Part shown: positions 6,195-61,000 of the stretch, piece by piece
Numbering within the stretch: the first letter of the stretch is position 1
Layout: every line of letters begins with the position of its first letter
Source: a virus
Taxonomy: Duplodnaviria; Heunggongvirae; Uroviricota; Caudoviricetes
Virus record (IMG/VR): IMGVR_UViG_3300032038_000024
Location: 37,689-101,688 of that record
DNA length: 64,000 nucleotides
Strand: one strand, 5' to 3'
Translations under genes and position numbers: made by a program
Notes under the pieces: generated by a model
Told to the model about the DNA's origin: nothing
The model's database searches: none
Seen by the model: only the letters and a program-made list of their open reading frames with translations

Positions 6195-6940
6195 AGAAAT
6201 ATGAAGATTTTATGAAAACATCAAAGGTATATGATTGCTTACCTATTATATATCCAATTCTTGGCTTAAATGGTGAAGCTGGTGAAGCAGCTGAAAAGGT
6301 TAAGAAATGTTTACGAGACAATAAAGGTAAATTTGATGAAGAAACAAAAAATGCAATTAAAAAAGAACTTGCTGACGTACTTTGGTATATTTGGGCAGCT
6401 GCTGATGATATGAATACAAGTCTTGGTGAAATAATGTCAATAGGTATGCAAAAAGTTAAAGAGCGTCAAGAAACAAATACCGTACATGGAAATGGAGATG
6501 ACCGTGAAAAGAAAAAAGAATCATTTATTGCTAATACACCAACTGAAACTCCCGTACAAATTGAAGAATCAATAGGTGATTTACCTAAAAGAATACTTGC
6601 AGTAACTACTGATTCATTTGATGAATTAAAAGAACTTCAATATAAAATGCAATTTATAAATCGTAGCAGTAAAGTTGATTTAACAATAATACAACATATT
6701 ACAAAAAATAAAGAAGTCCATAATGAAGTCCATACATATAAAGGTAAATTCAAAGGTATAGGCAGAATTGATGGTGCAATATTCGTTCAATTAGAAAATG
6801 AAAATGATATTGATGAAATACTTAAAATAGTAAACGAAACAGATATATCAAAAGATATATTAAATTATTATGAACTTATGGTTAATGAAACACAAATAAA
6901 TTGTCCAAAAGTTCGTGAAGTACCTCTTATATATATGTAG
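6185..6940 (+). CDS. MazG-like nucleotide pyrophosphohydrolase (N-terminal domain) with an unknown C-terminal domain
   Basis: LGLNGEAGEAAEKVKK ... ELADVLWYI are EExxE/LGDVLW-type MazG motifs. Confidence 0.6.
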   Translation: MQLKKYEDFMKTSKVYDCLPIIYPILGLNGEAGEAAEKVKKCLRDNKGKFDEETKNAIKKELADVLWYIWAAADDMNTSLGEIMSIGMQKVKERQETNTVHGNGDDREKKKESFIANTPTETPVQIEESIGDLPKRILAVTTDSFDELKELQYKMQFINRSSKVDLTIIQHITKNKEVHNEVHTYKGKFKGIGRIDGAIFVQLENENDIDEILKIVNETDISKDILNYYELMVNETQINCPKVREVPLIYM

Positions 6941-19115: not shown

Positions 19116-22100
19116 TTAAATTTCAGAAAGTTTAATAACTTTATCAAATAAACTAAACATACCAGTTTTTGTATTATCAGTTGTTGAAATTGTTAATTCT
19201 GATATATCTGAAGAAGATGTAATTTGTACATATTGAGCATCCAATTTAGGTTGATTAACAATTGAAATTGCTGATGGTGTACCATAGAATAATTGTTGTA
19301 TTTCAGTACCTTCATTGAATTTAACATTCATATATGTATTTGTTAAATTAACATATTCAATTACATTTGTATTTGCTCCTGTTGAACTTAAATCAATAGT
19401 TTTATATTTTTCATCTAATCTATTGTTTTCAGGATCTTCTTCAAAACCAAGTTTATTACAACCAGATAAATTAAGTTTCTTTAATTTTTTCATTTCACCA
19501 AATACAATATTTGGATAATCTACTTGTTCTTGGTTATAAGTACGTTTAGTAAATGTTGTTAATCCAATACAATTAGATAAATCAATTTCTTCAACATTTG
19601 GTAAATATTGGAATATACTTGTAAATTGTATATCATCTCTCATAACATCTCCTGATGATCCATATTTTGTACCATTTGCTAAAGTTGTTGTAATACCTGT
19701 ATGAGTTTTTGCCTTAAACATTGTAAGTGATAACAAATCAGATTTATAGAAACCTGCAGTACTTATTGTATTTGTTATTTGTGAACCAGTACTATCTAAA
19801 TATGATTCACATAATGCATCCCACATAGCTGAACTGTTATTTGTATAAATTGGATATGCGTCATCCATTAATACAATATGTTTACTTATTTCTTTCCAGT
19901 CACCAGATTTGAAAGTAAATGTACATGTTAATACATAATCAATCATACCTGTTTTAGGTATTGTACCAGTAACTTTAAGAATAATTGGATATTCATGTGA
20001 TGCATTTTGTGCATAAGAGAAATATGAATCTTGTCTTATCTTAATAGTTGTATCATTATTTGGATTTTCCTTAAATGTTGTATATGATGATGAAAGAATT
20101 ACTTGTCCTGCTGGATTTTTCAATGTCCATGTAACACCATTAGGTTTTGTATTACCTTCAGCTTCAGCAAATGGATATTCCAAATCTAAATAAAATTCTA
20201 TAGCAGGCAATGTATCACTATGGAATACGAAACCACCATTATATTGTCTTAATTCATTACTTGCAGTTAAGATATCCCATTTTTCTGGGTATGATACTGC
20301 TAATATATGTATTAATATATATGATGATTCACCATTTAATGTACATAATAACAATACATCAAAATCTTTACCACCACTACTTTCAGCAACATTAATATAT
20401 AATTTACCAGTTTCATCTTGCATGAAGTTAACTGTTCTGAATGAACCTTTATTAATACTTTGTGAACCTGTTTGAGGATCTATAAAATACCATTGTGCAT
20501 CTACTTCAGTTTCTTGAAGTGTAAATCTTGTTGCAGATACAGTTACTTTTTTACCTTCAGCAATAAATATACCACTAGTTTTTAATTCATTATTTAATTT
20601 ATTTAATGCTGCTCTATCGTTTTGCTGTGTATAATAAGAACGTAATCTATCTCTTGCTGCATTATAAACTTGTTGTGTTGATGGATCTTTGATTGTTATA
20701 TCTCCAGGATCACCACCTTCACCAAAGTTAATTTGAACATAATCAAGAGGTTGGTCTACAACTAAGTTAGATTCTCTTGCAACTTTATTAAATGTATTTT
20801 CACCAAACCAGTGTTTAATATTAGTTAATTGTTCAGCAGTTAATTTCTTTTGCTTTGATAATTGCACATAACCAGTAATTGGTTTAGGCTTATTATCTAA
20901 ACCATTATTATTCTTATTATTAAATTCTGCAATTAATGATAATTGTTCATATGTTAATAATGAAGCACAATTGTCTTGTGTCCATTCAACATATTCCATT
21001 TCTAATGTACGTTGATTTAATTCTTGTCTTAATAATATTTCAATTGCTTTATCTGTACTATCATCACCTGTTAAATTATTTTGATTTTTTATAAGAATAA
21101 TTTTATCCTTAAGAGTAGTATTTGAATGTTCAACAATATAACCTCTAATACTATCAATCCAATTTAATACTAATAATTGTGCGTTTTCAGATGATGCAGT
21201 TTTACCAGTCATCTTAATACTATTCAATGAATAAGGAATATTCAATGACTGTCTTGAATTATTTTGGTGCTTGGTATATGTTACAGAGTTATCTGCTGCA
21301 CTAATTGCTGCATCCCAGAAAATAATATCTGACCAAGTTGAATCATGTAAAATTAATGTTTTAAAACCTTTTCCATCATCACCGTCAGCCATATCTGAAC
21401 GTGTATTGTATGCAGGTAATTCAAGCATTTCAAATTGGTTACCATCTTCAGCAGATTCAAATGATGTAATACCTGTTCCTTTTGCATAGAAATTTTGTAA
21501 TTCAGTCAAATTATTTGTGTGAATAATTGACATATCACTTAATTGTGTTAAACCAACAATATTAATTTCTTTTACAATACCTAAAACATTTTTACCTTCA
21601 AGTGCACCAAAATCCAATTGAAGTGTATTACCATTAACATAACCAGTTAAAACGTTAGTACCTGGTGTTCTCATTGTTGGAACACCCATATTTAATACCT
21701 TAATACATGGACCTAATACATTATCGTATGCACCTGTAAATGTAGCTGTGTCCATACCTTTTGCTAAACAACTTATATCTAATTCTTCAATAAATGTTGC
21801 ACCATAAATATGGAATGGAACCTTTGTAGCAAGGTTTAATGATGTAATATCAAATCTTGCTGGGTTTTCATGATCACAGTGTGTTGCACCAGATCCAATC
21901 TTTTGATAGTTTTGTTCAATTGTTAAATATGTTTCAGCATTTGGTCTGATAATAATAATTTCAGGTTGATTTGCATTACCTGCAGGCTTAACGGCACCAA
22001 CATAAATTGTATGACGTCTAAAGTCACCACAATTCCATTTGGCATCATAATAGTTCATTGATGTACTTAACCACCAGTGTCTATGTGTTGTTCTTGCACC

Positions 22101-25100
22101 TTGTAACCAGTTCAACCATGTATTTGAACCACCACCTGATAATACATATTTAAAATAACCTGAATCATTATATATGCTTTCGCACCATTTACCGGCATAT
22201 TCTTCATCAAATATCTTAGTAATATTTTCATATGTTAAACCTGCAGTATATAATGCTTCTGCAACTGCAGGAACGATTGTATCAGCCCAATATGGCCATG
22301 CTTCAAGTGCATCCCATAACCAGTTAGATGTTTTATATCCACCCATACCATCACCTTGTCTACCTGATATAGCATATTCATTTCTATCAGTTGCTTTTGT
22401 TGTATTACGATCTATAGGAGGATTAAATGCAATACCACCAGTATTTTTATTACCTAAAGCAATATCCATATCCCATGGTTCATAATGCCAGTGAATACCG
22501 TCATATGTTTTTAATTGAGCATTACGTTCAAGTGAGTCAACAAGACCGAATCTTAATACATAAATATAATATGCAGCTAATTTATATAAATCTAAGTGTT
22601 GTGCTGCTGTTTTTTCAAATTCTTCTTGATTTTCATATGTACTTGTAATCCATGCAAACCAGTCAATAAATGGTTGAATTGTTTCTCTATATTTTGAACC
22701 TTCATTGAATTTATCCATTCCTTCTTCTTCTTTAATATCATCAGGATCTGGATATATTAATTCAAATTCTTGTTCCCAGTTAAATACTCTTTCATTTGTT
22801 ATTCTACCTTGTTCATCTTTAAGGAATACTGTTGCATCAAAAGGATTACCTTCCTTATCATTATATTGCATATATGATGTAAATGGAGTATTAACATCCA
22901 ATACTTCAATACGTAATACGTTTGCGTTGTTCCATACTCTATTTGATTTATGGTCTTGACCTTTTTGACCTTCAATTAATGCATTACTACCATTTTTTGT
23001 ATTAATCTTTTTTAATACAAATGGATCTTTTTCATCATAAGGATCATTTGGATAATCTGAAGCTTCTCTATTTGCTGGTAATGGGAAATTATATATTGAT
23101 CTTTCACCAAATACGAAGTCAGCTTTTTTATCTTCCATTAATACATATGAACCTAAGAATGTTTCTTTATTATCAGCAGATGTATCTTTATAGAATACAA
23201 CAACTGGAATAGAATCAGGTGCAATTTGTATATCATAAGGGAAAGCTGTAGGACGTTCATTTAATCCAGTTTCATTATTTACAAATGTATCCTTCCATAA
23301 TTTATTATCATATGTACCTCTCCAGTTAACACCAATTGAATTGTTGTTATTTGGGTCTTTGTCTTCATTTAAATTTTTATCTACATTAGATATTACTTCG
23401 TTTGTTGTAAATAATTGTGGTGCAGTTCTTAATCTAAAATCAACTTTACCATTAACATTAAATTCGGCATTATACCAAGTTTGTTGTATTAATCTTTGTA
23501 AACCACCATTATGTACACCAGAAGAGTCTGCATAGTTTGCTTGAAGAACAAATTTATTTGAAGGTATTGATGCCTTTCTTATAACTGTTCTTCCATCAGC
23601 AGATATTTCCTCATCACGTAATCTATATCTATTCTTATTAAATTTACATGCTTCTTGTCCAACACAATGTAATTCTGGAGTAACATTTTTACGTGTTGAT
23701 TTATTGAACCAGAATTTCATTGAAGGTATAGGATAGTTCAATGTTGATTGACCATGTTTTCTAATCAATGCATTATAACATATAAAATCTTTTGAAGAAT
23801 CATAAGGACATGTTCTTTGAATAGTAACATCAGTTTCTGATTGTTTCTTTTTACTATCTTTATCCAATAATCTTGATAGATCACCGGTAATCAAAATAGT
23901 ATCTAATAATCCACAACATTTATCGTAACTCATTTTGTTACTTACATAAATATCGTTTCTTGTAATAATATCTTGTTTATTTTCAGCATCAAAAACCCAG
24001 TTATTATATGCTTCTTTATATGTTAATGGAAAATCATATACTCTTATTGTATATACTTTAACACCTGAATTAGATCCACCAATCTTAATAGGACCTGTTG
24101 TTTCAAATGAGAATGAACTTGATGATATACCTCTTTCAAGAATACCATTATTTACAATAAATATTAATTCTGATTTTTCATTATTTGATCTTGGATTAAT
24201 AATGAAATGCAATTTAAGACGTTCATTTGTCTTAAAGTTTGTCTTAATACGTTCTTCACCACCAGTATCATATAATATTGCAGAGTTTGGTGTAATATCA
24301 ATTCTTGCTTGATAATCAGAACCAATTCTAATTAAAACATCTTGGTCATTATTAATCTTTTCGCTTTCAAATTCAATTTCAATTGTTTTACCTCTTGTAT
24401 AATCAGCTAATGGTGAACAATTGATTATTGCATATGAATCAGGTCCATAAGTTCTTAATGCACCATTTTGAGCATCCCAACCGTTAATGTTATCCCATTT
24501 AAATCCAGTAAATTCTGTTGAATATCTACCATATGTCCATGTATTTACACCTGAACCAATATTTTCTCTACCGTAAGCAGTTAATTTTAATTCATATGAT
24601 GCTGTTTCATATACACTGTTTCCCTTTTCAATTTTCATTGGTATTGAAATAATTTGTTGTCCATCAATTTTCGCAACCAAATAAATTGGCTTTTTGTTTT
24701 GTGTATATAATGAAGGCATAAATGATAATGGATTTTTTGCTTCCTTAAATCTACTTATACCAACACCAGTTGTCAATACAACTGTATCTCCAAGAGTTTG
24801 TTGTAATTCCCAACTAACATTAATATCACCTTGGTTATTATTATCACTATAATAACCCCATTCTAATTTATATGGATCATATTGTACTGCACTTAAAGTA
24901 GGTAAACCTAAAATTGGTAAATCTGCAACTTCTGATGCATTAATAGATGCTTTAAAGTTAACAAAATGGTTTGCAATTGATGGAGTATCTTCTCCATTAA
25001 AATCTTTTCTTACTTCAAATGTATAGAATAATATATTACTTGTAAAAACAGTATTATTTTGTGATATACGACAATAAATTTGTAATGTATGATATATTGG

Positions 25101-26006
25101 GGTTTCTGATGTACTTTGTGTTAATAAATCTTTAAGACGTACACCTTGAACAGATGTCATACCAAGAAATTGTCGTTTCATAACAACAAACTGGTTTTCA
25201 ACACTTAATTGTGTTGAATCATAGTGATCTGTTTCGTCATTTAAAGTCCATTTACCATCTAATACATAATAAATAGTAAATCCTGAATTAGGTCTTGTAT
25301 TTAAGTTAACTACAACATTATTAACATTAAATTCAGCTTGACTAATTTTATCTGATGTGTATTCAAAATCTGCATCAATATTAAAATTAATCATAGTAAT
25401 TGATACTGAAGGACTAGCTTCAGCTTCATAGTTAATTGCACTTAATTTTAATGTTACTGTATTTTCACCTTCATCAAGATACTTATAGAAATCACGAGTA
25501 ATTGTTTTTTCAGATCTACTTATTCTTTCTGTTTGTGTATGAACTTTATTTGTTGCAAGATTTTTAATTTCATATGTAGCTCTAATTTCATCAGAAAGAA
25601 TTGTTTCACCTTGTTTTATTTCCCATGAATATGTAATTGTCGATCCTGTTTGTTTATCGTCACCTTTAATAACATAACGCAAATCAGCATTAACAATTTC
25701 ACATTTTAAATCATATTCTGATTGTTTAGGCAATTCAGCAATTTGTAAGTTTTCCCATCCAGCAAATGGTGCTCTACCTTCTTTACCAGCTTTCCATAAA
25801 TTATATGCAGCTTCACTAGAAAATATTCTATATCTTGTAGTGTCTTTAAAAACATATATAGGCTTACGTAAATGCTCTTGTAAAAGATTTCTTATAGCTA
25901 AACCTGAAGGTTGTTTATTGTTTGTTGCTGACTGACCTGGTATATTTACATCTTCACCATTTATCCAGTTTACAAACTCTGTAATATTATCATTATATAA
26001 GTCCAT
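19116..26006 (-). CDS. giant (2296 aa) tail fibre/adhesin-like protein with a central CotH-like domain
   Basis: Uninterrupted 6.9-kb ORF. LYKLAAYYIYV...YDGIHWHYEPWDMDIALG resembles the CotH WDxDxxFG core; the C-terminus has LRR-like KLKKLNLSGCNKL. Confidence 0.55.
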   Translation of the reverse strand: MDLYNDNITEFVNWINGEDVNIPGQSATNNKQPSGLAIRNLLQEHLRKPIYVFKDTTRYRIFSSEAAYNLWKAGKEGRAPFAGWENLQIAELPKQSEYDLKCEIVNADLRYVIKGDDKQTGSTITYSWEIKQGETILSDEIRATYEIKNLATNKVHTQTERISRSEKTITRDFYKYLDEGENTVTLKLSAINYEAEASPSVSITMINFNIDADFEYTSDKISQAEFNVNNVVVNLNTRPNSGFTIYYVLDGKWTLNDETDHYDSTQLSVENQFVVMKRQFLGMTSVQGVRLKDLLTQSTSETPIYHTLQIYCRISQNNTVFTSNILFYTFEVRKDFNGEDTPSIANHFVNFKASINASEVADLPILGLPTLSAVQYDPYKLEWGYYSDNNNQGDINVSWELQQTLGDTVVLTTGVGISRFKEAKNPLSFMPSLYTQNKKPIYLVAKIDGQQIISIPMKIEKGNSVYETASYELKLTAYGRENIGSGVNTWTYGRYSTEFTGFKWDNINGWDAQNGALRTYGPDSYAIINCSPLADYTRGKTIEIEFESEKINNDQDVLIRIGSDYQARIDITPNSAILYDTGGEERIKTNFKTNERLKLHFIINPRSNNEKSELIFIVNNGILERGISSSSFSFETTGPIKIGGSNSGVKVYTIRVYDFPLTYKEAYNNWVFDAENKQDIITRNDIYVSNKMSYDKCCGLLDTILITGDLSRLLDKDSKKKQSETDVTIQRTCPYDSSKDFICYNALIRKHGQSTLNYPIPSMKFWFNKSTRKNVTPELHCVGQEACKFNKNRYRLRDEEISADGRTVIRKASIPSNKFVLQANYADSSGVHNGGLQRLIQQTWYNAEFNVNGKVDFRLRTAPQLFTTNEVISNVDKNLNEDKDPNNNNSIGVNWRGTYDNKLWKDTFVNNETGLNERPTAFPYDIQIAPDSIPVVVFYKDTSADNKETFLGSYVLMEDKKADFVFGERSIYNFPLPANREASDYPNDPYDEKDPFVLKKINTKNGSNALIEGQKGQDHKSNRVWNNANVLRIEVLDVNTPFTSYMQYNDKEGNPFDATVFLKDEQGRITNERVFNWEQEFELIYPDPDDIKEEEGMDKFNEGSKYRETIQPFIDWFAWITSTYENQEEFEKTAAQHLDLYKLAAYYIYVLRFGLVDSLERNAQLKTYDGIHWHYEPWDMDIALGNKNTGGIAFNPPIDRNTTKATDRNEYAISGRQGDGMGGYKTSNWLWDALEAWPYWADTIVPAVAEALYTAGLTYENITKIFDEEYAGKWCESIYNDSGYFKYVLSGGGSNTWLNWLQGARTTHRHWWLSTSMNYYDAKWNCGDFRRHTIYVGAVKPAGNANQPEIIIIRPNAETYLTIEQNYQKIGSGATHCDHENPARFDITSLNLATKVPFHIYGATFIEELDISCLAKGMDTATFTGAYDNVLGPCIKVLNMGVPTMRTPGTNVLTGYVNGNTLQLDFGALEGKNVLGIVKEINIVGLTQLSDMSIIHTNNLTELQNFYAKGTGITSFESAEDGNQFEMLELPAYNTRSDMADGDDGKGFKTLILHDSTWSDIIFWDAAISAADNSVTYTKHQNNSRQSLNIPYSLNSIKMTGKTASSENAQLLVLNWIDSIRGYIVEHSNTTLKDKIILIKNQNNLTGDDSTDKAIEILLRQELNQRTLEMEYVEWTQDNCASLLTYEQLSLIAEFNNKNNNGLDNKPKPITGYVQLSKQKKLTAEQLTNIKHWFGENTFNKVARESNLVVDQPLDYVQINFGEGGDPGDITIKDPSTQQVYNAARDRLRSYYTQQNDRAALNKLNNELKTSGIFIAEGKKVTVSATRFTLQETEVDAQWYFIDPQTGSQSINKGSFRTVNFMQDETGKLYINVAESSGGKDFDVLLLCTLNGESSYILIHILAVSYPEKWDILTASNELRQYNGGFVFHSDTLPAIEFYLDLEYPFAEAEGNTKPNGVTWTLKNPAGQVILSSSYTTFKENPNNDTTIKIRQDSYFSYAQNASHEYPIILKVTGTIPKTGMIDYVLTCTFTFKSGDWKEISKHIVLMDDAYPIYTNNSSAMWDALCESYLDSTGSQITNTISTAGFYKSDLLSLTMFKAKTHTGITTTLANGTKYGSSGDVMRDDIQFTSIFQYLPNVEEIDLSNCIGLTTFTKRTYNQEQVDYPNIVFGEMKKLKKLNLSGCNKLGFEEDPENNRLDEKYKTIDLSSTGANTNVIEYVNLTNTYMNVKFNEGTEIQQLFYGTPSAISIVNQPKLDAQYVQITSSSDISELTISTTDNTKTGMFSLFDKVIKLSEI

Positions 26007-29466: not shown

Positions 29467-29970
29467 TTAATAATATGATGTTTTTAATTTTGATCTATCA
29501 TATTCATATATATCAGCAATTAAACCATTTAATGCAGCAAATATTTCTTTATATGTATAAGATTTACCACTTGAATGATATCCACCATCTGTTTTTAATA
29601 TCCAATCACATTTGTCAACACCATTTTTAATATCAAATAATGTTTCAAAACCATCAGCAGTTAACATTAAAACACCTTTATTATTACGTACGAAAATAAT
29701 AACATTGCTTCCACCAGTTGCAGTTTCTTTATGTTTTTTACGAAGATCTTTTAATACTTCAGGAGTAAGTTCAATATTATCTTCAACTAATTTTGTTATT
29801 GCATTTACTTTTCCATTTATACTTATAGGACATTTTTCAGTTTTAAATGCCTTTATTGCTTCTTTAGTATCTTTATATTTTGGTGTAGCATCATTAATAT
29901 AATAATCATTACTTTGTAATTTATTTTCATTAATTAATGATTCTAAAATAAAATTTTTAATATCCTGCAT
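29467..29970 (-). CDS. hypothetical protein with the shared N-terminal motif (MQDIKNFILE)
   Basis: 167-aa ORF. Confidence 0.45.
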   Translation of the reverse strand: MQDIKNFILESLINENKLQSNDYYINDATPKYKDTKEAIKAFKTEKCPISINGKVNAITKLVEDNIELTPEVLKDLRKKHKETATGGSNVIIFVRNNKGVLMLTADGFETLFDIKNGVDKCDWILKTDGGYHSSGKSYTYKEIFAALNGLIADIYEYDRSKLKTSYY

Positions 29971-30087
29971 AACTTATTAAATTTAATTATATTTAATATT
30001 TAATAAAAATAATAAAAATAAATTAAAAAAATGATAGACAAGTCATTAAATAAATTTATTTTAATTAAATAATACTTAAATTTATAT

Positions 30088-30900
30088 ATGATATATATAT
30101 GTAATCATTTAAAAAATCCTAACATTGATATTGATGAAAAATATTTTAAAATTATTAATGTAACTGATTTTGATAATTCCGATGATTTAATTTTACAATC
30201 TCAAAAATATTTTAATGAATTTACAGTTACATATTATATATATAAAAACAAAATATATAATAATGAACCTTGGGTTGGATTTTGTCATTATAGACGTATA
30301 CTAAAATTAAAAGATATTAATATTGAAAGAATATTAAAGAATCATGAATTACAATATTTTTATGAAATGCAATATACTTGGGAACCTGAATATAATAAAC
30401 AATTATATGATTATGAATACCCAAGAATAGCAGAATTTCTGAATAATTTTTCAACTAATGATATGTTTTATAATGATATTTGTGAATATATAAATACTTG
30501 TGGAAGTGAAGAAGATAAAAAACATTTTAAAAATATATGTTCAATAAATAGTTATTATGATGCAAATTTTATTGTAAAATCAATATATATAACTACAATT
30601 GATATTTTTGAACAAATATGCGAATTTATTATAAATTATATACGTTTTATATTTGATAAATATAATATTAATTCATTAGTTGACTTTATATTGCATATTG
30701 ACACAAATATGAAAAATCATCTTAAAGTTTCATCTTATACTATGATACCTGGAAATAATATGAGAATATATGCATATATTATTGAAATATTAACTGGAAT
30801 GTATTGTATGAAATTTGATACATTTAAAACACATCAATATAGATTAGAAATGGGATCATGTTCATGTTATAATGATGAAGCATTTTCTACAGAAGCATAA
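30088..30900 (+). CDS. hypothetical Cys-rich protein; lone + strand gene, moron-like
   Basis: 270-aa ORF, extremely AT-rich, on the opposite strand to its neighbours, ending at a bidirectional terminator. Confidence 0.4.
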   Translation: MIYICNHLKNPNIDIDEKYFKIINVTDFDNSDDLILQSQKYFNEFTVTYYIYKNKIYNNEPWVGFCHYRRILKLKDINIERILKNHELQYFYEMQYTWEPEYNKQLYDYEYPRIAEFLNNFSTNDMFYNDICEYINTCGSEEDKKHFKNICSINSYYDANFIVKSIYITTIDIFEQICEFIINYIRFIFDKYNINSLVDFILHIDTNMKNHLKVSSYTMIPGNNMRIYAYIIEILTGMYCMKFDTFKTHQYRLEMGSCSCYNDEAFSTEA

Positions 30901-30928
30901 AAAAAGCAGCTAGTTAACTAGCTGCCTT
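30901..30928. terminator. bidirectional terminator (palindrome)
   Basis: AAAAAGCAGCTAG-TTAA-CTAGCTGCCTT. Confidence 0.6.
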
Positions 30929-30949: not shown

Positions 30950-33049
30950 TTACTCTACCTCTTCAAATGTTTCCTCCTTAGAGTTGTCCTTCTTTTTGTT
31001 GTCCTTCTTTGTTCCCTTACCTGGTTTTGGATCTTCAGGAGCAGGAAGTTCAGATGTACCCTTTCCAAAGAGTCCCTTAAACTGATCCTTAACACCACTG
31101 TTAATCATATCCAATGCAGGAGCAAAGTTCTGAACGAAGCTCTTAGCAAAGTCAGCACCAGTGTTCTTATCACCGTAAACGGTAACATTACCAAGCTGTA
31201 CGTGTTCAAGTACCTTAGCCTGAGCCTCTGCAATACCCTTATACTGGTCAACCATCTTGTACTGAACAACAAGATCAGGATTACCACCTACAGCTGCAAC
31301 CATTCGTTCAAGAGCCATAGCAGGAGCAAGTTCCTTCTGCTGGATTGCCTCAGCTTCTGCAAGCAAGCTTGCCTTCTTACCTTCAGCCTCAGCCATCAAC
31401 TTATTCTTGGTACCTTCAGCTTCAGCATTCAACTTCATACGAGTTGCTTCTGCCTCAGCTTCAGCCTTTCTCAATACCTGAGCCTTGATTGCCTCAGCCT
31501 CAAGTTCTGCCTTACGCTTAATTGCCTCAGCCTCAATAACTGCCTTTTCTTTAGCCTTTTGTGCTGGAATAATTTCAGTAGCATTCAAGTTTTCCTCAGC
31601 AGCCTTTGCAGCAGCCTTGTTAACTTCCATCTGACGGTCTTGACGAGTCTTCTCGACTGACATCTCAGCTTCAACCTTTGCAGTTTCAGAAACCTTTACG
31701 GCATCTGCTTCAGCTTGACCTGCCTTTGCACGAGCCTGTGCAACTTCAATCTTTGCCATCTGTTCAGCAACACCTGCCTTCTTATCCTGTTCTGCCTTAC
31801 GTTGTCTCTTATTAGATTCATATTCAGCAGCCTTTGCTTCCTTCTCCTGAGTAGCCTTAATTACTTCAGCTTCCTTCTGTTGGTTAGCTTGTGCAATACG
31901 AGTTTGCTTCTTTGCTTCCTGCTCGTTCTCAGTTGCCTCAGCATCTGCCTGAGCAGTTGCAATTGCCTTTGTCTGTTCAGCTTCTGACTTTGCCTTTGCA
32001 GACTCAGCCTCTGCCTTACGTGCAGCCACTGCTGCTACCTTCTTTGCATTTGCCTCAGCTTCCTTAGAAGCAGCCTCAGCATCTGCTGCTGATACATTTG
32101 CAACCTGCTTTGCCTTAGCTGCAGCTTTCTTTGATTCTGCATCAGCCTGAGCTTCTGCAATATTTGCTACCTTTTCAGCTTCCTGAGTTGCAATACCTGA
32201 CTCACGTTCCTTTTCAGCCTCAGCCAATTGGATTTGCTTGTCTCTCTCAATACCAGCAACTTTTACTTCCTGTTCCTGACGTGTCTGATTAACAGTAACC
32301 TGCTTCTCCTTCTCAGCTGCAGCAACAGCAATTTCCTCTTCCTTCTTTGTATTAGCAATCTTTACGTTTCCTTGCTTCTTCTGTTCAGCAATATCTGCCT
32401 CAGCTTCAGCTTGCTTACGAGTTGTTGCTTTCTGACCCATGTTCTTGATATAGTTGGCATCATCAGTAATTTCTGAGATATTGATATTAGTTACATCGTA
32501 ACCTATCTTAACCAACTCCTGCTCAAGATTAGTACGAACCTTTGTCAAGAACTTATCACGGTCAGCATTAATTTCCTCAATAAGCATTGTTGCCATAATA
32601 GCACGAGTCTCACCAATCAAGATTTCTGAAATCTGACCTTGGATTTCACCAGGTGTAGCACTCAAGAAACGAGTTGCGGCATTCTGTTGGATCTCCTTGT
32701 CTCGTGAAATAGCTGTAGTTAATACAACTGGCAAGTGCAACTGAATTGCCTGTGAATCAATACCATCAACTGTCGCCTTAATCTGAATAGGCTTCATTGA
32801 CATCTTTTTGTAATCCTGAATGACAGGCCATACAAACGCACCGCCACCTTGGATAATCTTTGATGGTACTACAATTGTCTGCTGCTTTCCATCTTCTCCT
32901 TGAACTTGGATCTTACCGGACTTACCGAATACAACCAAAAGTTCATCAGGTGCAGAACGACGATAACGAGAAAGAATTCCCCAAACGGTTAGTACAAACA
33001 AAAGTACACCACCACCAATCAAACACAAAGTTAAAATTGTTTCGTTCAT
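30950..33049 (-). CDS. flotillin-like SPFH/band-7 protein (YqiK/FloT type)
   Basis: N-terminal TM helix, an SPFH-like region, then a very long Ala/Glu-rich (AEAEA) coiled coil. GC is locally higher than in surrounding genes. Confidence 0.7.
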   Translation of the reverse strand: MNETILTLCLIGGGVLLFVLTVWGILSRYRRSAPDELLVVFGKSGKIQVQGEDGKQQTIVVPSKIIQGGGAFVWPVIQDYKKMSMKPIQIKATVDGIDSQAIQLHLPVVLTTAISRDKEIQQNAATRFLSATPGEIQGQISEILIGETRAIMATMLIEEINADRDKFLTKVRTNLEQELVKIGYDVTNINISEITDDANYIKNMGQKATTRKQAEAEADIAEQKKQGNVKIANTKKEEEIAVAAAEKEKQVTVNQTRQEQEVKVAGIERDKQIQLAEAEKERESGIATQEAEKVANIAEAQADAESKKAAAKAKQVANVSAADAEAASKEAEANAKKVAAVAARKAEAESAKAKSEAEQTKAIATAQADAEATENEQEAKKQTRIAQANQQKEAEVIKATQEKEAKAAEYESNKRQRKAEQDKKAGVAEQMAKIEVAQARAKAGQAEADAVKVSETAKVEAEMSVEKTRQDRQMEVNKAAAKAAEENLNATEIIPAQKAKEKAVIEAEAIKRKAELEAEAIKAQVLRKAEAEAEATRMKLNAEAEGTKNKLMAEAEGKKASLLAEAEAIQQKELAPAMALERMVAAVGGNPDLVVQYKMVDQYKGIAEAQAKVLEHVQLGNVTVYGDKNTGADFAKSFVQNFAPALDMINSGVKDQFKGLFGKGTSELPAPEDPKPGKGTKKDNKKKDNSKEETFEEVE

Positions 33050-33082
33050 TTAATATAAAAATTTAAGTTAATAAAAAATATG

Positions 33083-33295
33083 TTAATTTAATTCTGTTCC
33101 AAGTTTCGATAATTTATGTTGCTCATCATAACAAGATATCTTATATGCATCATTTAATTTCTTAAAATCATCATCTTCAGATAATCCTTTCTTTAATGCC
33201 CATGTTGCAACATTTACTGAATGTTGAATTTCATCTTTAGTAACCGGAATATCAACACCATTCCATAAAAATTTAATTAATTGCGTAATTGTCAT
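33083..33295 (-). CDS. hypothetical protein
   Basis: 70-aa ORF. Confidence 0.4.
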   Translation of the reverse strand: MTITQLIKFLWNGVDIPVTKDEIQHSVNVATWALKKGLSEDDDFKKLNDAYKISCYDEQHKLSKLGTELN

Positions 33296-33462
33296 ACTTC
33301 GTCAATATTAATCTTATCTAATTGTTTTTTAACGTATTTCAAATTGGAATACATTGAATAATCATACAATAGTTTTGTTCCAATTAGTGCTCCCACTGTA
33401 GCACCCAAGCCAATTACAGTATATTTTACTGGCTTACTCCATATCAGATCCTTTAATGTCAT
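33292..33462 (-). CDS. possible 56-aa single-TM protein (not in the ORF track)
   Basis: ATG at 33462, VIGLGATVGALIGTKLL, ATGA overlap with the next gene. Confidence 0.25.
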   Translation of the reverse strand: MTLKDLIWSKPVKYTVIGLGATVGALIGTKLLYDYSMYSNLKYVKKQLDKINIDEV

Positions 33463-34000
33463 TTTCTAAATGCTTAATAAAAATATTGTTACCCTCTTTT
33501 TCTAATGTTACTTCTGTACCGGGTTCCAATTCATCTCCTGTATAAAATGCTGTTACATTTGTTGTACCTGCAGGTGTATGTGCTTGAACTGAATAAGAAC
33601 CATTTCCTAAATTAATATAGATTGTTCCTTTTGAATTATCAATTAAATCTTCAGGATCTTTTGTAGAATTATTTGCTTTCATTGCTAACTTATAAGCATA
33701 GAATAATGCAATCATTACAATTATACCAATAACAATAGCCCATACAAAATCTCCAAAACTAAATTGTACTTTTCCATCAACAATATTTACTGTATCAGTA
33801 TGTGCACGTGCAAATAAATATGAACTAAAGCCTACTAAAAAATGCAATGCGCCTTTGAAAGAAAAAGCACTTGATGTATCAAAATCACTATCACCATCAA
33901 AGTCAACATCTAAATCTATATCACCAGCAAATAATGAAATTGCTAACTTTACTACAAATAAAGATATAACTGTAATAAATAAAATAGTATACCACGCCAT
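33434..34000 (-). CDS. NfeD-like membrane protein (TM helices plus a C-terminal beta-rich OB-like domain), partner of the SPFH gene
   Basis: Three hydrophobic segments, then GTIYINLGNGSYSVQAHTPAGTTNVTAFYTGDELEPGTEVTLEKEGNNIFIKH; positioned upstream of the flotillin as in yqiJ-yqiK. Confidence 0.45.
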   Translation of the reverse strand: MAWYTILFITVISLFVVKLAISLFAGDIDLDVDFDGDSDFDTSSAFSFKGALHFLVGFSSYLFARAHTDTVNIVDGKVQFSFGDFVWAIVIGIIVMIALFYAYKLAMKANNSTKDPEDLIDNSKGTIYINLGNGSYSVQAHTPAGTTNVTAFYTGDELEPGTEVTLEKEGNNIFIKHLENDIKGSDME

Positions 34001-58052: not shown

Positions 58053-61000
58053 TTATGATATTCTAATTGTACTTGTATTCTTAAACTGATGTTGAATATC
58101 TCTGTCCAACGAATATTTAACTGTTACTTTATAATAACCACGTTCATATTTTGCATCGTTCTTAGGTAATGACAATATTGTCATTTCTCCATTAGATTCA
58201 AATGATGTATCTGTAGACATACCTAATGACATTGGATGTATATTCCATTTTGAACTTATACTTGCATTAAACGGTAATCTATCATTATTATGTAAATAAC
58301 AACAAACAATATCATCAGTCTTAAATTGATTGAAACCTTCTGAAGTATTAAATTCAAGTCTATTTATCAAATATTCTTCTGAACTCTTTTCATAATTCAA
58401 TATATACTTATTCTTTAATATCTTCTTTTTATCTGCTTCATTTCTTAATTTCAAATCTTCATTTGTTCTTATCTTATCGCAAGTTTCTTGAGAAATGTAT
58501 AATCCATACCAATAATTTTCATCATGCATCAAATAGAAGTCATAATTCAAGTATGTATCTAATTTAATTTCTTCATCATATTCATAAACACTATGTAACA
58601 ATACATTCTTCAATTCTTTGTTTTCAAAATACGAATCATATACATTAAATTTCAACTTAAAGAAATCATTATACAAATTGAATATATAAGCATTATCATT
58701 ATCTCCATACTCAAATTCTTGATTAAGATATTTTGTTTTAACAATATTCTTACCAGATTCTAATGGTTTATATTCTAATCGTTTTTCATTTACACTTATT
58801 TTAATAAATTTTGGAATTATATAAATATCTGTTCTATCATTCCAATTTATATTAGTTTCACTATTTATTGAAATAAATACTGTTATCTTCTTTTCATTTC
58901 CTGTAAATTCAAATTCTGTTCCTACTTCAGTATAATTAGTAACATTTCCATTTTCATCAATTACTTCAGTATGCATTGTTGCATATTGTTCAATATTAGT
59001 AATAAATTCCATTCTATATTTGCCCTTAATACCTGTTAAATCTTTTATAAGATAATTCTTAAATCTATATCTTGCAATATCTTCATCTTTGGCATATCTA
59101 TTACCTTTGAAATTATTTAGATAATTATCTAAATTAGCTTTAATTGTTTCATAAGAATCATTTTCGTTATATACATATCTTTCAATTTCATTCAAATAAG
59201 ATGGTAATGATTCTAAAGATAATTTATCTGCATTATACCAATACATAGAAGGATTTTGTACTGATACTAAATGATTATAAGAATTATCTTTATACATATA
59301 TTTATCATCATATTTTATTAATTCAACAATGTATTTAGATCCATTAATCTCAATATTCAAATAATATGTATTATCTTTAACAGATATAATTGAATTATTT
59401 TCTATATTGTTTTCTTTTAAGTAATTAAGATAATCACTTAAAATATAGAATCTATTTCTAACAATATGAGCTTTATGATAATAGAATGTTACAATTATCT
59501 TATTATATTCAATATTATCAATTTGATTTAATGAAATTCCTTCAATCCTATTATCTAATTCATCAAAGAATGCAATTGAATAACTTAATTTATTTGCATA
59601 ATGTTTTGATAAATCATTTAAATCACATATTTCTTTATCATCAAAACAATAAATATTTCCTTCTTCATATTCTTTAACATAAATATCAATATCTTCAAAT
59701 CCTTTATTTAAACTTTTAGATAATTGTCTATTTGCATAAAAATCATTAAGTGTCTTATATGTTATTGCACCAACACATGTTTCTTTACTTTCGATATAAT
59801 ATGTAAATTCATTTGTATCAAATTCATATAAATTAGGTACTTCCCAAATATGCATTGCTGATGTTCCTCTAATTGGATCATAACATTTTCTTGCATCACG
59901 TTTAACATAAAATCCTAATCTATCTTTAATTTCAATTACTTGTGATGGTGCTAATGGTTTATGACCATCTGCTAATGGGGATGTCCAGTATAATCCATAA
60001 GTATCTGGGAATCTTGTATCAATACTTGAATCTAATGTACCTTGTATAAATATTTTCAATTGTTCATCATTGTTAAGATCTTTTGTAACACCATGTGTAA
60101 AACGAAGACCATCAATATGCATATCAATATTATTATGGAATATTAATATGTTATTTTCAGTAATTACATTTTCATATATTCCAAATAAATGTAAAGAATT
60201 TTTATACTTAGGGTTATTTGGTAAGTTAACTAATGTTGAATATCTTGAATAAATCTTTTCACTATTTGCATAAAGTTTATCATATATTTCATAAGTATGA
60301 ATCACATCCCCATTTTCATCATATTCTTTGTATGTATTATCTAAATAATCATATTTAATATCAATTGTATCATATTTTAAGAACTCTTCAGTATCTTCAG
60401 TTTTGAATAACACTTCAGATTCTATTTCAGAAGCATTTAATATTTCATAATTTTTATCATCATTTGAACTATCAAATGTTTCTGCTAAAATAAATATATC
60501 ACCTTGATATGCACATAACAATATTGTATCATTATCATTAAGATAATCAGGGAAGAAACTAATATCATAACCTATTAAATCTTTATGTATATATACTTCA
60601 TGATTGTTTCCTAATGTATCTTTATAAATAATATATTGATAAAATTCACCATCAGTCAAAGTACCATCCATATATAACAAGTTATGATCTAAATGATATT
60701 TTAATATGGTTTGGAAATTAACATCAAAATTAATTTCATTCATATCAACTAATTGCTTATTATGCATATAAGCATTAAACATTACTTTATTGTTTTTATC
60801 ATCTAAACCTCTAATTTGTTTAAATGGTGATAGCAAATTATAATGATCCTTAAAGAATTGATATATATGTTCTGCTTCAGATAAATTAAATGATTGAATC
60901 CATGTTTCTTGATTCCATTCATTATGTATATCTTGATTTAAGTTATATGTATTATATAAGTATTGATTAATTGCTTGTAAATCATTTTTAATAAACACAG

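Follow-up and report, generated by a model that had tools for sequence, protein, structure and literature searches.

The window, i.e., the whole 64,000-nt stretch of DNA that was analyzed, belongs to a large low-GC gut or rumen phage and contains phage genes for a tail sheath, a gp23-like capsid protein, a T4-type prohead protease and a tail-tip domain. Four open reading frames in the ORF list, all on the minus strand and adjoining tail genes, form an operon that is ordered, in the direction of transcription, from an NfeD-like gene through two micro-genes to a flotillin gene and a terminator. Features of this locus were as follows.

33434..34000, minus strand: NfeD-like membrane partner gene, 188 aa (ORF, fold, synteny)
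33926..33994, minus strand: transmembrane (TM) helix 1, aa 3-25, in which one polar position is conserved (AF2 helix, hydropathy, alignments A1 and A2)
33866..33925, minus strand: acidic D-x-D repeat loop, aa 26-45, GDIDLDVDFDGDSDFD (modeled as disordered)
33803..33859, minus strand: TM helix 2, aa 48-66, with motif SFKGxxHFxxGF (AF2, alignments)
33674..33757, minus strand: TM helix 3, aa 82-109, followed by the basic stretch KLAMKANNSTK (AF2, hydropathy)
33473..33643, minus strand: five-strand OB-fold domain, aa 120-176, putative flotillin-binding domain
33292..33462, minus strand: 56-aa micro-protein, probable single-pass membrane protein (ORF; homologues in loci L009, L004, L003 and L010)
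33083..33295, minus strand: 70-aa soluble micro-protein (ORF; conserved N-terminus in L009 and L004)
30950..33049, minus strand: flotillin gene, 699 aa (Pfam Band_7, NCBIfam FloT, PDB, Bacteroides and phage homologues)
32972..33037, minus strand: N-terminal membrane anchor, aa 5-26, followed by conserved SRYRRSAPDELLVVFGK (hydropathy, AF2 helix 2-31, invariant columns)
32378..32947, minus strand: SPFH/Band_7 domain, aa 35-224 (Pfam PF01145, E=3.8e-20)
31280..32377, minus strand: extended Ala/Glu-rich coiled coil, aa 225-590 (composition, AF2 helices, alignment gaps)
31070..31279, minus strand: conserved C-terminal flotillin region, aa 591-660 (aligns with the Bacteroides flotillin segment that passes PF15975; invariant columns)
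30903..30928, no single strand: bidirectional intrinsic terminator hairpin of 11 pairs (T-run on the minus strand)

The preliminary description of this DNA depicted the 699-aa product as a flotillin-type protein with an N-terminal TM helix, an SPFH domain and a very long Ala/Glu-rich coiled coil, and all of these elements were recovered. Thus, PF01145 matched at 73.1 bits (cutoff 23.6 bits) over positions 6-175 of the 176 in the profile, and a single hydrophobic segment (aa 5-26) was followed by RYRR, which by the positive-inside rule only would leave the protein anchored at its N-terminus with the remainder in the cytoplasm. The region after the SPFH domain was rich in A (17%), E (12%), K (12%) and Q (7%) with AEAEAEA-type repeats, and helices spanned residues 198-586 in an AF2 model that, at pLDDT 52, was left out of the fold search. 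The only NCBIfam match was FloT and, with the best ones considered, the only PDB sequence matches were flotillin-1 and flotillin-2, while HflK/HflC gave no match in either NCBIfam or PDB and the module carries a single SPFH gene rather than a paralogous pair. Together with full-length homology to a Bacteroides flotillin, these matches point firmly to a flotillin. Orthologues in phages share 72-90% identity with it. The score against the FloT equivalog NF058507 was 116.5 bits, below the 700-bit cutoff; the protein is a flotillin, yet no orthologue of Bacillus FloT. PF15975 (Flot) did not match the phage protein at E≤0.1 in the Pfam scan, whereas the equivalent Bacteroides segment passed the 27-bit cutoff with 30.6 bits; within the aligned segment, the phage protein carries an insertion of 22 residues.

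The 188-aa protein encoded upstream, which had been described as a multi-TM protein with a beta-rich C-terminus of the NfeD type, was predicted by AF2 (pLDDT 79.6) to consist of three helices (aa 3-25, 48-66 and 82-109), a linker (aa 110-122) and a five-strand beta domain. By definition, an NfeD protein begins with three hydrophobic helices, after which comes a short hydrophilic linker (PMC2636767). The AF2 model reproduces this arrangement, and the predicted domain at aa 120-176 likewise corresponds to the C-terminal all-beta OB fold of PH0471 (2EXD). In TM helix 1, the conserved polar position is K18 in the window protein and Q in most of the family. The D-x-D loop contains eight acidic and no basic residues, among which D31, D33, D39 and D41 are invariant among close relatives, and SFKGxxHFxxGF is the most conserved motif of the family (K49, G50, H53, F54 and G57 conserved in at least 90% of 93 diverse members). 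A Foldseek search against PDB returned generic OB folds alone and did not separate NfeD from other OB folds.

Profile searches supported the NfeD assignment in part. PF01957 (NfeD) did not match the 188-aa protein at E≤10, and scans of Pfam, NCBIfam and PHROGs gave neither an NfeD nor a YqiJ match. Weak PF01957 matches were noted in 5 of 93 family members (best E=0.0015), the best PDB match of the family profile was YuaF (E=0.045) and one viral homologue is named NfeD-like in UniProt. Published NfeD2 proteins are only about 21% identical to NfeD (PMC2636767), and the protein was accordingly filed as NfeD-like rather than as a Pfam NfeD member. Searches with the 188-aa protein by tblastn against phages gave no match at E≤1e-3, but BLASTP with the partner protein of phage csAssE-Sib did detect homology. 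The gene order was constant: an NfeD-like gene lay directly upstream of, and co-directional with, the SPFH gene in the window, in 36 of 36 IMG/VR loci and on a Bacteroides chromosome, and the same order was noted in loci L001, L004, L005 and L008-L014. The NfeD-like identity of the protein is thus supported by its fold and architecture, by weak links between profiles and by a synteny without exceptions, although the protein itself has no direct Pfam match to NfeD or YqiJ. Both features whose absence would have refuted the original proposal, an SPFH domain and an NfeD-type OB domain, are present.

The two tiny ORFs noted earlier between these genes are real genes, since both are conserved in related phages (63% identity in L009 and 33% in L004 for the 56-aa protein; 67% and 68% over the N-terminus of the 70-aa protein, where LIKFLWNGVDIPxTxDEIQH is conserved in L009 and L004). 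The 56-aa protein, which was said to be single-TM, contains a single hydrophobic segment rich in Gly (aa 14-32), and its homologues keep a hydrophobic stretch there; it is probably, although not certainly, a single-pass membrane protein. Its gene overlaps the NfeD-like gene by 29 nt, and the overlap of its stop codon with the start of the 70-aa gene (ATGA) suggests translational coupling of the two micro-genes. The terminator hairpin, situated 22 nt past the flotillin stop codon, closes both the operon and a convergent DUF4422 gene. Sigma-70 promoter matches were no commoner than in shuffled sequence.

The operon is a phage copy of the bacterial nfeD-flotillin operon of the SPFH2/NfeD2 type, like yuaF-floT and yqiJ-yqiK. 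Compared with YuaF-FloT (YuaG), the NfeD2-SPFH2 operon of Bacillus subtilis, the likeness was distant (116 of the 700 bits for FloT, and the marginal YuaF match). FloT is about 509 aa in length, the phage flotillin being some 190 residues longer, and YuaF is not known to have an acidic D-x-D loop. Escherichia coli YqiJ-YqiK follows the same operon logic, YqiJ being a multi-TM protein with a C-terminal OB domain and an Asp/His-rich loop before its ALHYL helix. An hhalign comparison of the 93 family members with 18 YqiJ sequences, a shallow set from Enterobacterales only, gave a probability of 10.7% (P=0.003) with co-linear alignment over TM3 and the OB domain, while neither YqiJ_N (PF21001) nor YqiJ_OB (PF07290) matched the window protein or family members in Pfam; by sequence, the 188-aa protein is therefore not demonstrably a YqiJ family member. 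With one YqiJ sequence alone as the target, hhalign was uninformative. Among solved structures, the closest by sequence to the phage flotillin were human flotillin-1/flotillin-2 (PDB 9bq2 and 9l3g; SPFH domain and start of the coiled coil, E about 1e-18), from which the cage or dome assembly model is taken; they form a hetero-oligomer of two paralogues, in contrast with the single SPFH gene of the phage module. Human flotillins have no NfeD partner and are attached by acylation and a hairpin rather than a TM helix. Staphylococcus aureus NfeD-FloA has, by its published description, the operon order of the phage module, and in it the cytosolic domain of NfeD binds and stabilizes the flotillin oligomer (Ukleja et al. 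2024, PMC11222466). At 328 aa in a Psychrobacillus homologue, FloA is short beside the 699 aa of the phage flotillin.

Closer relatives were identified in Bacteroidota and in a second group of phages. The clue to a donor came from PLSDB records that are really chromosome fragments, and the lineage that the preliminary description proposed to seek was recognized through a chromosomal pair of Bacteroides finegoldii, WP_007757712.1 (165-aa hypothetical protein) and WP_007757713.1 (flotillin family protein), arranged in the same order as a two-gene operon. The B. finegoldii partner belongs over its full length to the family of the 188-aa protein (hhalign probability 100%, E=2.8e-45) and shares with it the acidic D-x-D loop and the SFKG-H-F motif. 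The flotillins are co-linear to the C-terminus and 36% identical over their full length (E=1e-108), with 47% identity in the SPFH domain. The B. finegoldii genes differ in being directly adjacent, 21 nt apart and free of micro-ORFs, of which the phage has two, and the 548-aa B. finegoldii flotillin lacks about 150 coiled-coil residues, an 11-residue SPFH insertion and the 22-residue Flot-region insertion of the phage protein, from which it also differs in codon usage. In phage csAssE-Sib (OR575929), WOZ57346.1 ("transmembrane protein", not recognized in the record as NfeD-like) and WOZ57345.1 ("flotillin family protein", 566 aa) are likewise encoded as a pair by a phage, with the order unchanged. 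Identity to the window proteins is 33% for the partner (E=9e-14) and 35-41% for the flotillin, but here the genes are directly adjacent without micro-ORFs and lie among replication genes, and the genome, at approximately 38% GC, shows no codon anomaly. This second clade comprises about 28 IMG/VR contigs. From these homologies, the operon appears to have been captured as a unit from Bacteroidota, long ago rather than recently.

A cellular origin had been proposed before on the grounds that the flotillin gene is richer in GC than its neighbors. The difference itself was confirmed (GC 0.437 versus 0.19-0.30; GC3 0.34 versus 0.05-0.22), and the conclusion is right, with Bacteroidota as the origin and a date that is not recent, on the independent evidence of homology; the step from GC to acquisition fails. 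Recent acquisition of the flotillin gene from a host, with its GC as an unameliorated donor signature, would fit a value of 0.437 against about 0.28, synonymous codon use sharply unlike that of the neighbors and the Bacteroidota origin of the operon. However, the amino acid composition of the flotillin alone predicts a GC of 0.357, i.e., approximately half of the excess. The codon bias is unlike Bacteroides usage (AAG 0.92 versus 0.40, GAG 0.40 versus 0.07, GCT+GCA 0.96 versus 0.50), it is kept in orthologues from phages with just 63% identity between capsid proteins and nearly saturated four-fold sites, and it is absent from the co-inherited NfeD-like gene, the GC3 of which (0.12) is typical of phage. 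All close homologues of the flotillin (68-90% identical) were, moreover, found in phage contexts. High GC is thus no sign of acquisition, and a recent transfer is very improbable. A-runs were strongly depleted (2 observed, 18 expected), but GAG use was independent of the next base, so that this test of whether the bias toward G-ending codons comes from context-dependent poly-A avoidance did not discriminate. The expression-type bias and the terminal position of the gene before a strong terminator suggest that the flotillin may be produced abundantly.

That the region is bacterial DNA, present through host contamination, chimeric assembly or as prophage cargo, can be given almost no credence. 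The top PLSDB match is indeed a bacterial chromosome fragment, and the contig of one relative was assigned to a Methanobrevibacter MAG, but that contig is 5.9 kb long and has the phage micro-ORFs as well. In the window and on contigs of 128-465 kb, the module is embedded among structural genes of phage and long trains of co-directional phage genes, and it occurs in 36 IMG/VR viral contigs and in the complete deposited genome of csAssE-Sib. The MAG contig, the only locus that a scan of genome contigs returned, is probably a mis-binned phage contig and so pointed to no donor lineage. It is also quite unlikely that the 188-aa protein is a small membrane protein of other descent, whose beta domain is a generic OB or Ig-like one and which simply travels with the flotillin. 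In favor of this are the absent Pfam matches to NfeD and YqiJ, the generic OB folds from Foldseek, a sub-threshold match to the Ig-like Big_3_5 (24.5 bits, cutoff 35.5 bits) in 14 of 34 close members and an Ig-like repeat protein as top PDB match of a shallow profile. Identity with Big_3_5 or an Ig-like repeat was rejected, as the signal was gone with a deeper profile and is at odds with the predicted barrel.

With regard to function, the flotillin would most likely be anchored in the inner membrane of the host, its SPFH domain and coiled coil extending into the cytoplasm, and may oligomerize into a ring or cage-like scaffold. The NfeD-like partner would bind and stabilize this scaffold through its cytoplasmic OB domain. 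By analogy with S. aureus NfeD-FloA, the source of the model (PMC11222466), such an assembly would most likely act as an ATP-independent scaffold or holdase, and could preserve the function of the host membrane, and of membrane proteins on which the phage depends, during the long infection cycle that goes with a very large phage. Another possibility, raised in the preliminary description, is that the pair regulates the host protease FtsH in the manner of HflK/C or QmcA-YbbJ and so shields phage or host proteins. SPFH proteins of E. coli with and without NfeD partners do bind FtsH (PMC2636767), but the phage protein groups with flotillins and not with HflK/C, stomatin or prohibitin, has no paralogous partner and, from its charge distribution, would hold its SPFH domain in the cytoplasm while HflK/C face the periplasm; since the module also contains no protease domain or protease gene, this role is unlikely. 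Participation in superinfection exclusion, lysis timing or counter-defense, e.g., by buffering membrane-depolarizing abortive-infection effectors or organizing holins, seems rather doubtful as well. Such a role would suit a membrane-located phage module with small single-pass membrane proteins, which in L005 is found within a few kb of genes for lysozyme and peptidase, whereas in the window the module adjoins tail rather than lysis genes, no holin or spanin signature was detected, no known defense or exclusion family was found (PADLOC, none for six proteins at E≤0.01; PHROGs, phrog_200 as the sole match) and genes engaged in an arms race are not usually better conserved than the capsid gene.

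An old capture of the operon as a unit from a Bacteroidota-type host, its retention by the phage as an nfeD-flotillin operon and a role as membrane scaffold or holdase together form a reading that we consider probable. Among large phages of the gut and rumen, two clades or more retain the operon under strong purifying selection, and the flotillin gene is better conserved than the phage's own capsid gene. The 7 kb around the locus gave no megablast match to deposited phages, and no functional study of a phage-encoded flotillin was found in the literature. More tentatively, and more likely wrong than right, the host flotillin-NfeD operon may have become a core viral function in large gut and rumen phages that infect Bacteroidota, with an enlarged phage-specific cage, an NfeD-like partner of its own, dedicated micro-proteins and very high output giving a virus-controlled inner-membrane microdomain required for infection. 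Such a microdomain, which might protect membrane energetics or anchor assembly, would explain both the conservation of the flotillin above the capsid and the codon bias that its gene maintains.

Almost all bacteria have flotillin-NfeD operons, the cellular role of which is still debated. Here an entire operon, rather than a lone gene, occurs in two or more clades of large phages from gut and rumen and is more strongly constrained than the capsid gene, which makes it a candidate viral strategy for managing host membrane integrity. Its derivation from Bacteroidota is also a pointer to the hosts that an uncultured clade of jumbo phages infects. These operons further offer a natural experiment on flotillin design, with coiled-coil length ranging from 519 to 706 residues, and a widespread Bacteroidota and phage family annotated as "hypothetical" or "transmembrane protein" can be labeled as the NfeD-like partner of flotillin.

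The window is phage DNA, in which genes for a tail sheath, a gp23-like capsid protein, a T4-type prohead protease and a tail-tip domain protein were identified; no close DNA-level relative was found among deposited phages. The four minus-strand ORFs of the preliminary description, including two tiny ones between the NfeD-like partner and the flotillin, were present and were followed by a terminator:

33434-34000, minus strand, ORF, partner gene (188 aa)
33292-33462, minus strand, ORF, micro-gene (56 aa)
33083-33295, minus strand, ORF, micro-gene (70 aa)
30950-33049, minus strand, ORF, flotillin gene (699 aa)
30903-30928, terminator after the flotillin stop (11-pair hairpin plus T-run), also serving the convergent plus-strand gene

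The ORFs are tightly packed: the 3' end of the 188-aa gene overlaps the 56-aa gene by 29 nt, the ATGA that closes the 56-aa gene is the start of the 70-aa gene, and 33 nt separate the latter from the flotillin start. Between the flotillin gene and a 205-aa gene, positions 29467-30900 hold a 167-aa minus-strand gene and a plus-strand DUF4422 glycosyltransferase-like gene (GC 0.19); since the 205-aa homologue directly follows flotillin in two related loci (L004 and L010), this interval is a variable insertion spot. Giant minus-strand ORFs (19116-26006, 2296 aa; 58053-63326, 1757 aa) flank the region, and a protein with an RNA-polymerase sigma-factor-like PHROG match is encoded at 39-1199.

Identification of the 699-aa protein as an SPFH protein was borne out by a Pfam Band_7 match at aa 35-224 (73 bits against a cutoff of 23.6 bits). 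Its only solved-structure matches were human flotillin-2 and flotillin-1 (E ~1e-18), and its sole NCBIfam match was FloT, at 116 bits far under the equivalog cutoff of 700 bits. The transmembrane helix and the long Ala/Glu-rich coiled coil described earlier were also recovered, the former as a single N-terminal hydrophobic helix followed by RYRR and the latter as a nearly all-helical stretch from the SPFH domain to about residue 586, in a protein of 17% Ala and 12% Glu. Secondary structure alone was taken from the AF2 model, the pLDDT of which was poor (52). The suggested Flot domain (PF15975) gave no direct Pfam match in the phage protein and was found instead in its Bacteroides finegoldii homologue, which aligns with it end to end (E=1e-108) and passes both Band_7 and Flot. 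Compared with this homologue, the phage flotillin has a coiled coil about 150 residues longer and two insertions, one of 11 residues in the SPFH domain and one of 22 residues within the Flot segment; the latter probably accounts for the missing Flot match.

The proposal that the upstream protein is an NfeD partner was supported, though not by direct Pfam matches. Neither Pfam NfeD nor YqiJ was detected in the 188-aa protein or in 33 close relatives, even with the threshold relaxed to E<=10. At 50% clustering, a full HMMER profile search yielded 281 representatives of the family; five of 93 of them individually touched Pfam NfeD (best E=0.0015), and a profile of these 93, compared with 177,635 PDB sequences, best matched YuaF over the OB domain (E=0.045). 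In a Foldseek search of predicted viral structures, the partner matched over its full length (E=4.7e-13, 28% identity) a protein named in UniProt 'NfeD-like C-terminal domain-containing protein', and profile-profile comparison with an alignment of 18 YqiJ sequences gave a weak match (probability 10.7%), co-linear over TM3 and the OB domain. The partner also has the layout of published NfeD proteins (i.e., three hydrophobic stretches and, after a short hydrophilic linker, an all-beta domain like that of 2EXD), among which the sequence similarity of the flotillin-associated NfeD2 proteins has been described as slight (PMC2636767). Because the sequence test fails while profile, structure and layout evidence supports the relationship, the protein is labeled NfeD-like and is not placed in the Pfam NfeD or YqiJ families. 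Its TM1-TM2 loop (33866-33925, aa 26-45), disordered in the model, contains an invariant acidic D-x-D repeat, with eight acidic and no basic residues, at the same place as an Asp/His-rich loop of E. coli YqiJ, and may serve to bind cations or a partner.

The origin of the operon is cellular, as had been surmised. The top five matches in a tblastn search of PLSDB with the SPFH region were all from Bacteroidota, the best being a B. finegoldii record (NZ_OY725925.1, 'plasmid 23') that carries truA, purC, ubiE and aroE and is really a chromosome fragment. The gene 21 nt upstream of its flotillin encodes a 165-aa 'hypothetical protein' that belongs unambiguously, over its full length, to the family of the phage partner (hhalign probability 100%, E=2.8e-45) and has both the acidic D-x-D loop and the SFKG-H-F motif. 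The two genes are therefore common to Bacteroidota chromosomes and these phages as one unit. Another PLSDB record, the E. coli PN43 'plasmid' NZ_MG591698.1, carries the chromosomal glgS-yqiJ-hldE region and looks like a chromosome fragment; its yqiK reads as two ORFs (251 and 302 aa), which suggests a frameshift.

Weak Shine-Dalgarno usage is associated with Bacteroidota. Among the 36 genes of at least 150 aa in the window, just 2 were preceded by such a motif, and no tRNA genes were found within the 64 kb, which is consistent with a Bacteroidota-type host. That the prohead protease has its nearest relatives among isolates in phages infecting Tenacibaculum, and that many relatives come from cattle-rumen metagenomes, also fits a host of this kind.

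Pairing of the two genes is conserved. Each of the closest flotillin homologues (68-90% identical) sits in a phage context and shares the layout of partner gene, small ORFs and flotillin, the partner in L005, a related locus, being somewhat further upstream (6409-6930); distant members of the partner family (~25-30% identical) have a Band_7 protein within 8-9 nt downstream. In IMG/VR, all 36 viral contigs (27-435 kb) with a partner relative had a same-strand flotillin downstream. One group is a low-GC clade that resembles the window and has small ORFs between partner and flotillin, and the other (~38% GC, the two genes adjacent) is mostly related to the deposited phage csAssE-Sib, where they are annotated 'transmembrane protein' and 'flotillin family protein'. 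The order, NfeD-like gene before flotillin, is that usual in bacteria (PMC11222466). Both micro-genes are kept in related phages, some relatives having another set of three or an inserted beta-flower repeat protein. The latter (153-159 aa; L005 7097-7558, L008 6554-7033), located between the NfeD-like gene and flotillin, has a signal-peptide-like N-terminus; in L008 it gives a match to Pfam Bflower_3 (6-fold beta flower, E=1e-27).

Several contigs with the module were noted individually. On the 46-kb contig IMGVR_UViG_3300001519_000020, the flotillin N-terminus (260 aa) is 100% and the NfeD-like protein 94% identical to its window counterpart; this contig probably comes from the same phage or one almost identical to it. 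A 5.9-kb contig (CACYVR010000057.1, 1-5906), with the same micro-ORFs and a flotillin 82-84% identical, had been assigned to the GTDB representative 'uncultured Methanobrevibacter sp. RUG12316'; it probably belongs to a low-GC phage and was placed in this archaeal MAG by a binning error. Contigs of 360-465 kb from metagenomes of cattle rumen and other sources (including L008, L018, L023, L050 and L051) also carry relatives of the module, so that genomes of megaphage size belong to the clade. The prohead protease is 41% identical to that of Prevotella Lak phages.

As described earlier, the flotillin gene (GC 0.437) is GC-richer than its neighbours, with GC3 of 0.34 versus 0.05-0.22 elsewhere; window GC is ~0.28 overall and 0.43-0.46 in the 31-33 kb interval. 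The reading of this difference as a sign of acquisition did not survive, however. Given its own amino acids and genome codon usage, a GC of 0.357 is expected, so that composition accounts for about half of the excess. The other half reflects a specific synonymous pattern: two-fold purine-ending families all prefer G (AAG 0.92, CAG 0.69, GAG 0.40, TTG 0.50) and four-fold families remain A/T-ending; preferences for AAG, CGT and AAC are common to the capsid and sheath genes whereas those for CAG, GAG and TTG are not. The pattern recurs in the L004 and L005 orthologues, although four-fold sites are near saturation (0.57-0.58 identical to the window vs 0.49-0.50 expected), is unlike codon usage of B. 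finegoldii, and does not extend to the partner gene inherited together with flotillin. On these grounds a relic of recent transfer was ruled out, and the bias, which differs from the phage background as well as from Bacteroides, was concluded to be kept by selection. A-runs of at least 5 are strongly depleted (2 observed, 18 expected), and GAG use showed no dependence on sequence context.

Between the window and L004, identity was 75.6% for flotillin, 62.6% for the capsid protein, 59.9% for the prohead protease and 57.7% for the partner; being more conserved than these, flotillin behaves like one of the core genes of the clade.

By analogy with bacterial and eukaryotic flotillins, the protein would be anchored in the inner membrane of the host, its SPFH domain and coiled coil facing the cytoplasm, and would oligomerise to a ring or cage, which the cytoplasmic OB domain of the partner may bind and stabilise (PMC11222466). 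The module would then most likely be an ATP-independent scaffold or holdase that maintains the membrane and its proteins while a very large phage completes its long infection. A role in superinfection exclusion, lysis timing or counter-defence seems unlikely, defence or exclusion having found no support from PADLOC or PHROGs, and control of FtsH by the module is likewise considered unlikely. That the module constitutes an essential, virus-specialised membrane microdomain is a tentative suggestion, less likely than not.

Such phage genes already bear the GenBank label 'flotillin family protein', and a literature search for functional studies of phage-encoded flotillins found annotation-level mentions only. 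New here are the recognition of the partner as NfeD-like, the occurrence of the whole operon in phages of two clades, its Bacteroidota origin, its unusually strong conservation and the maintained codon bias.
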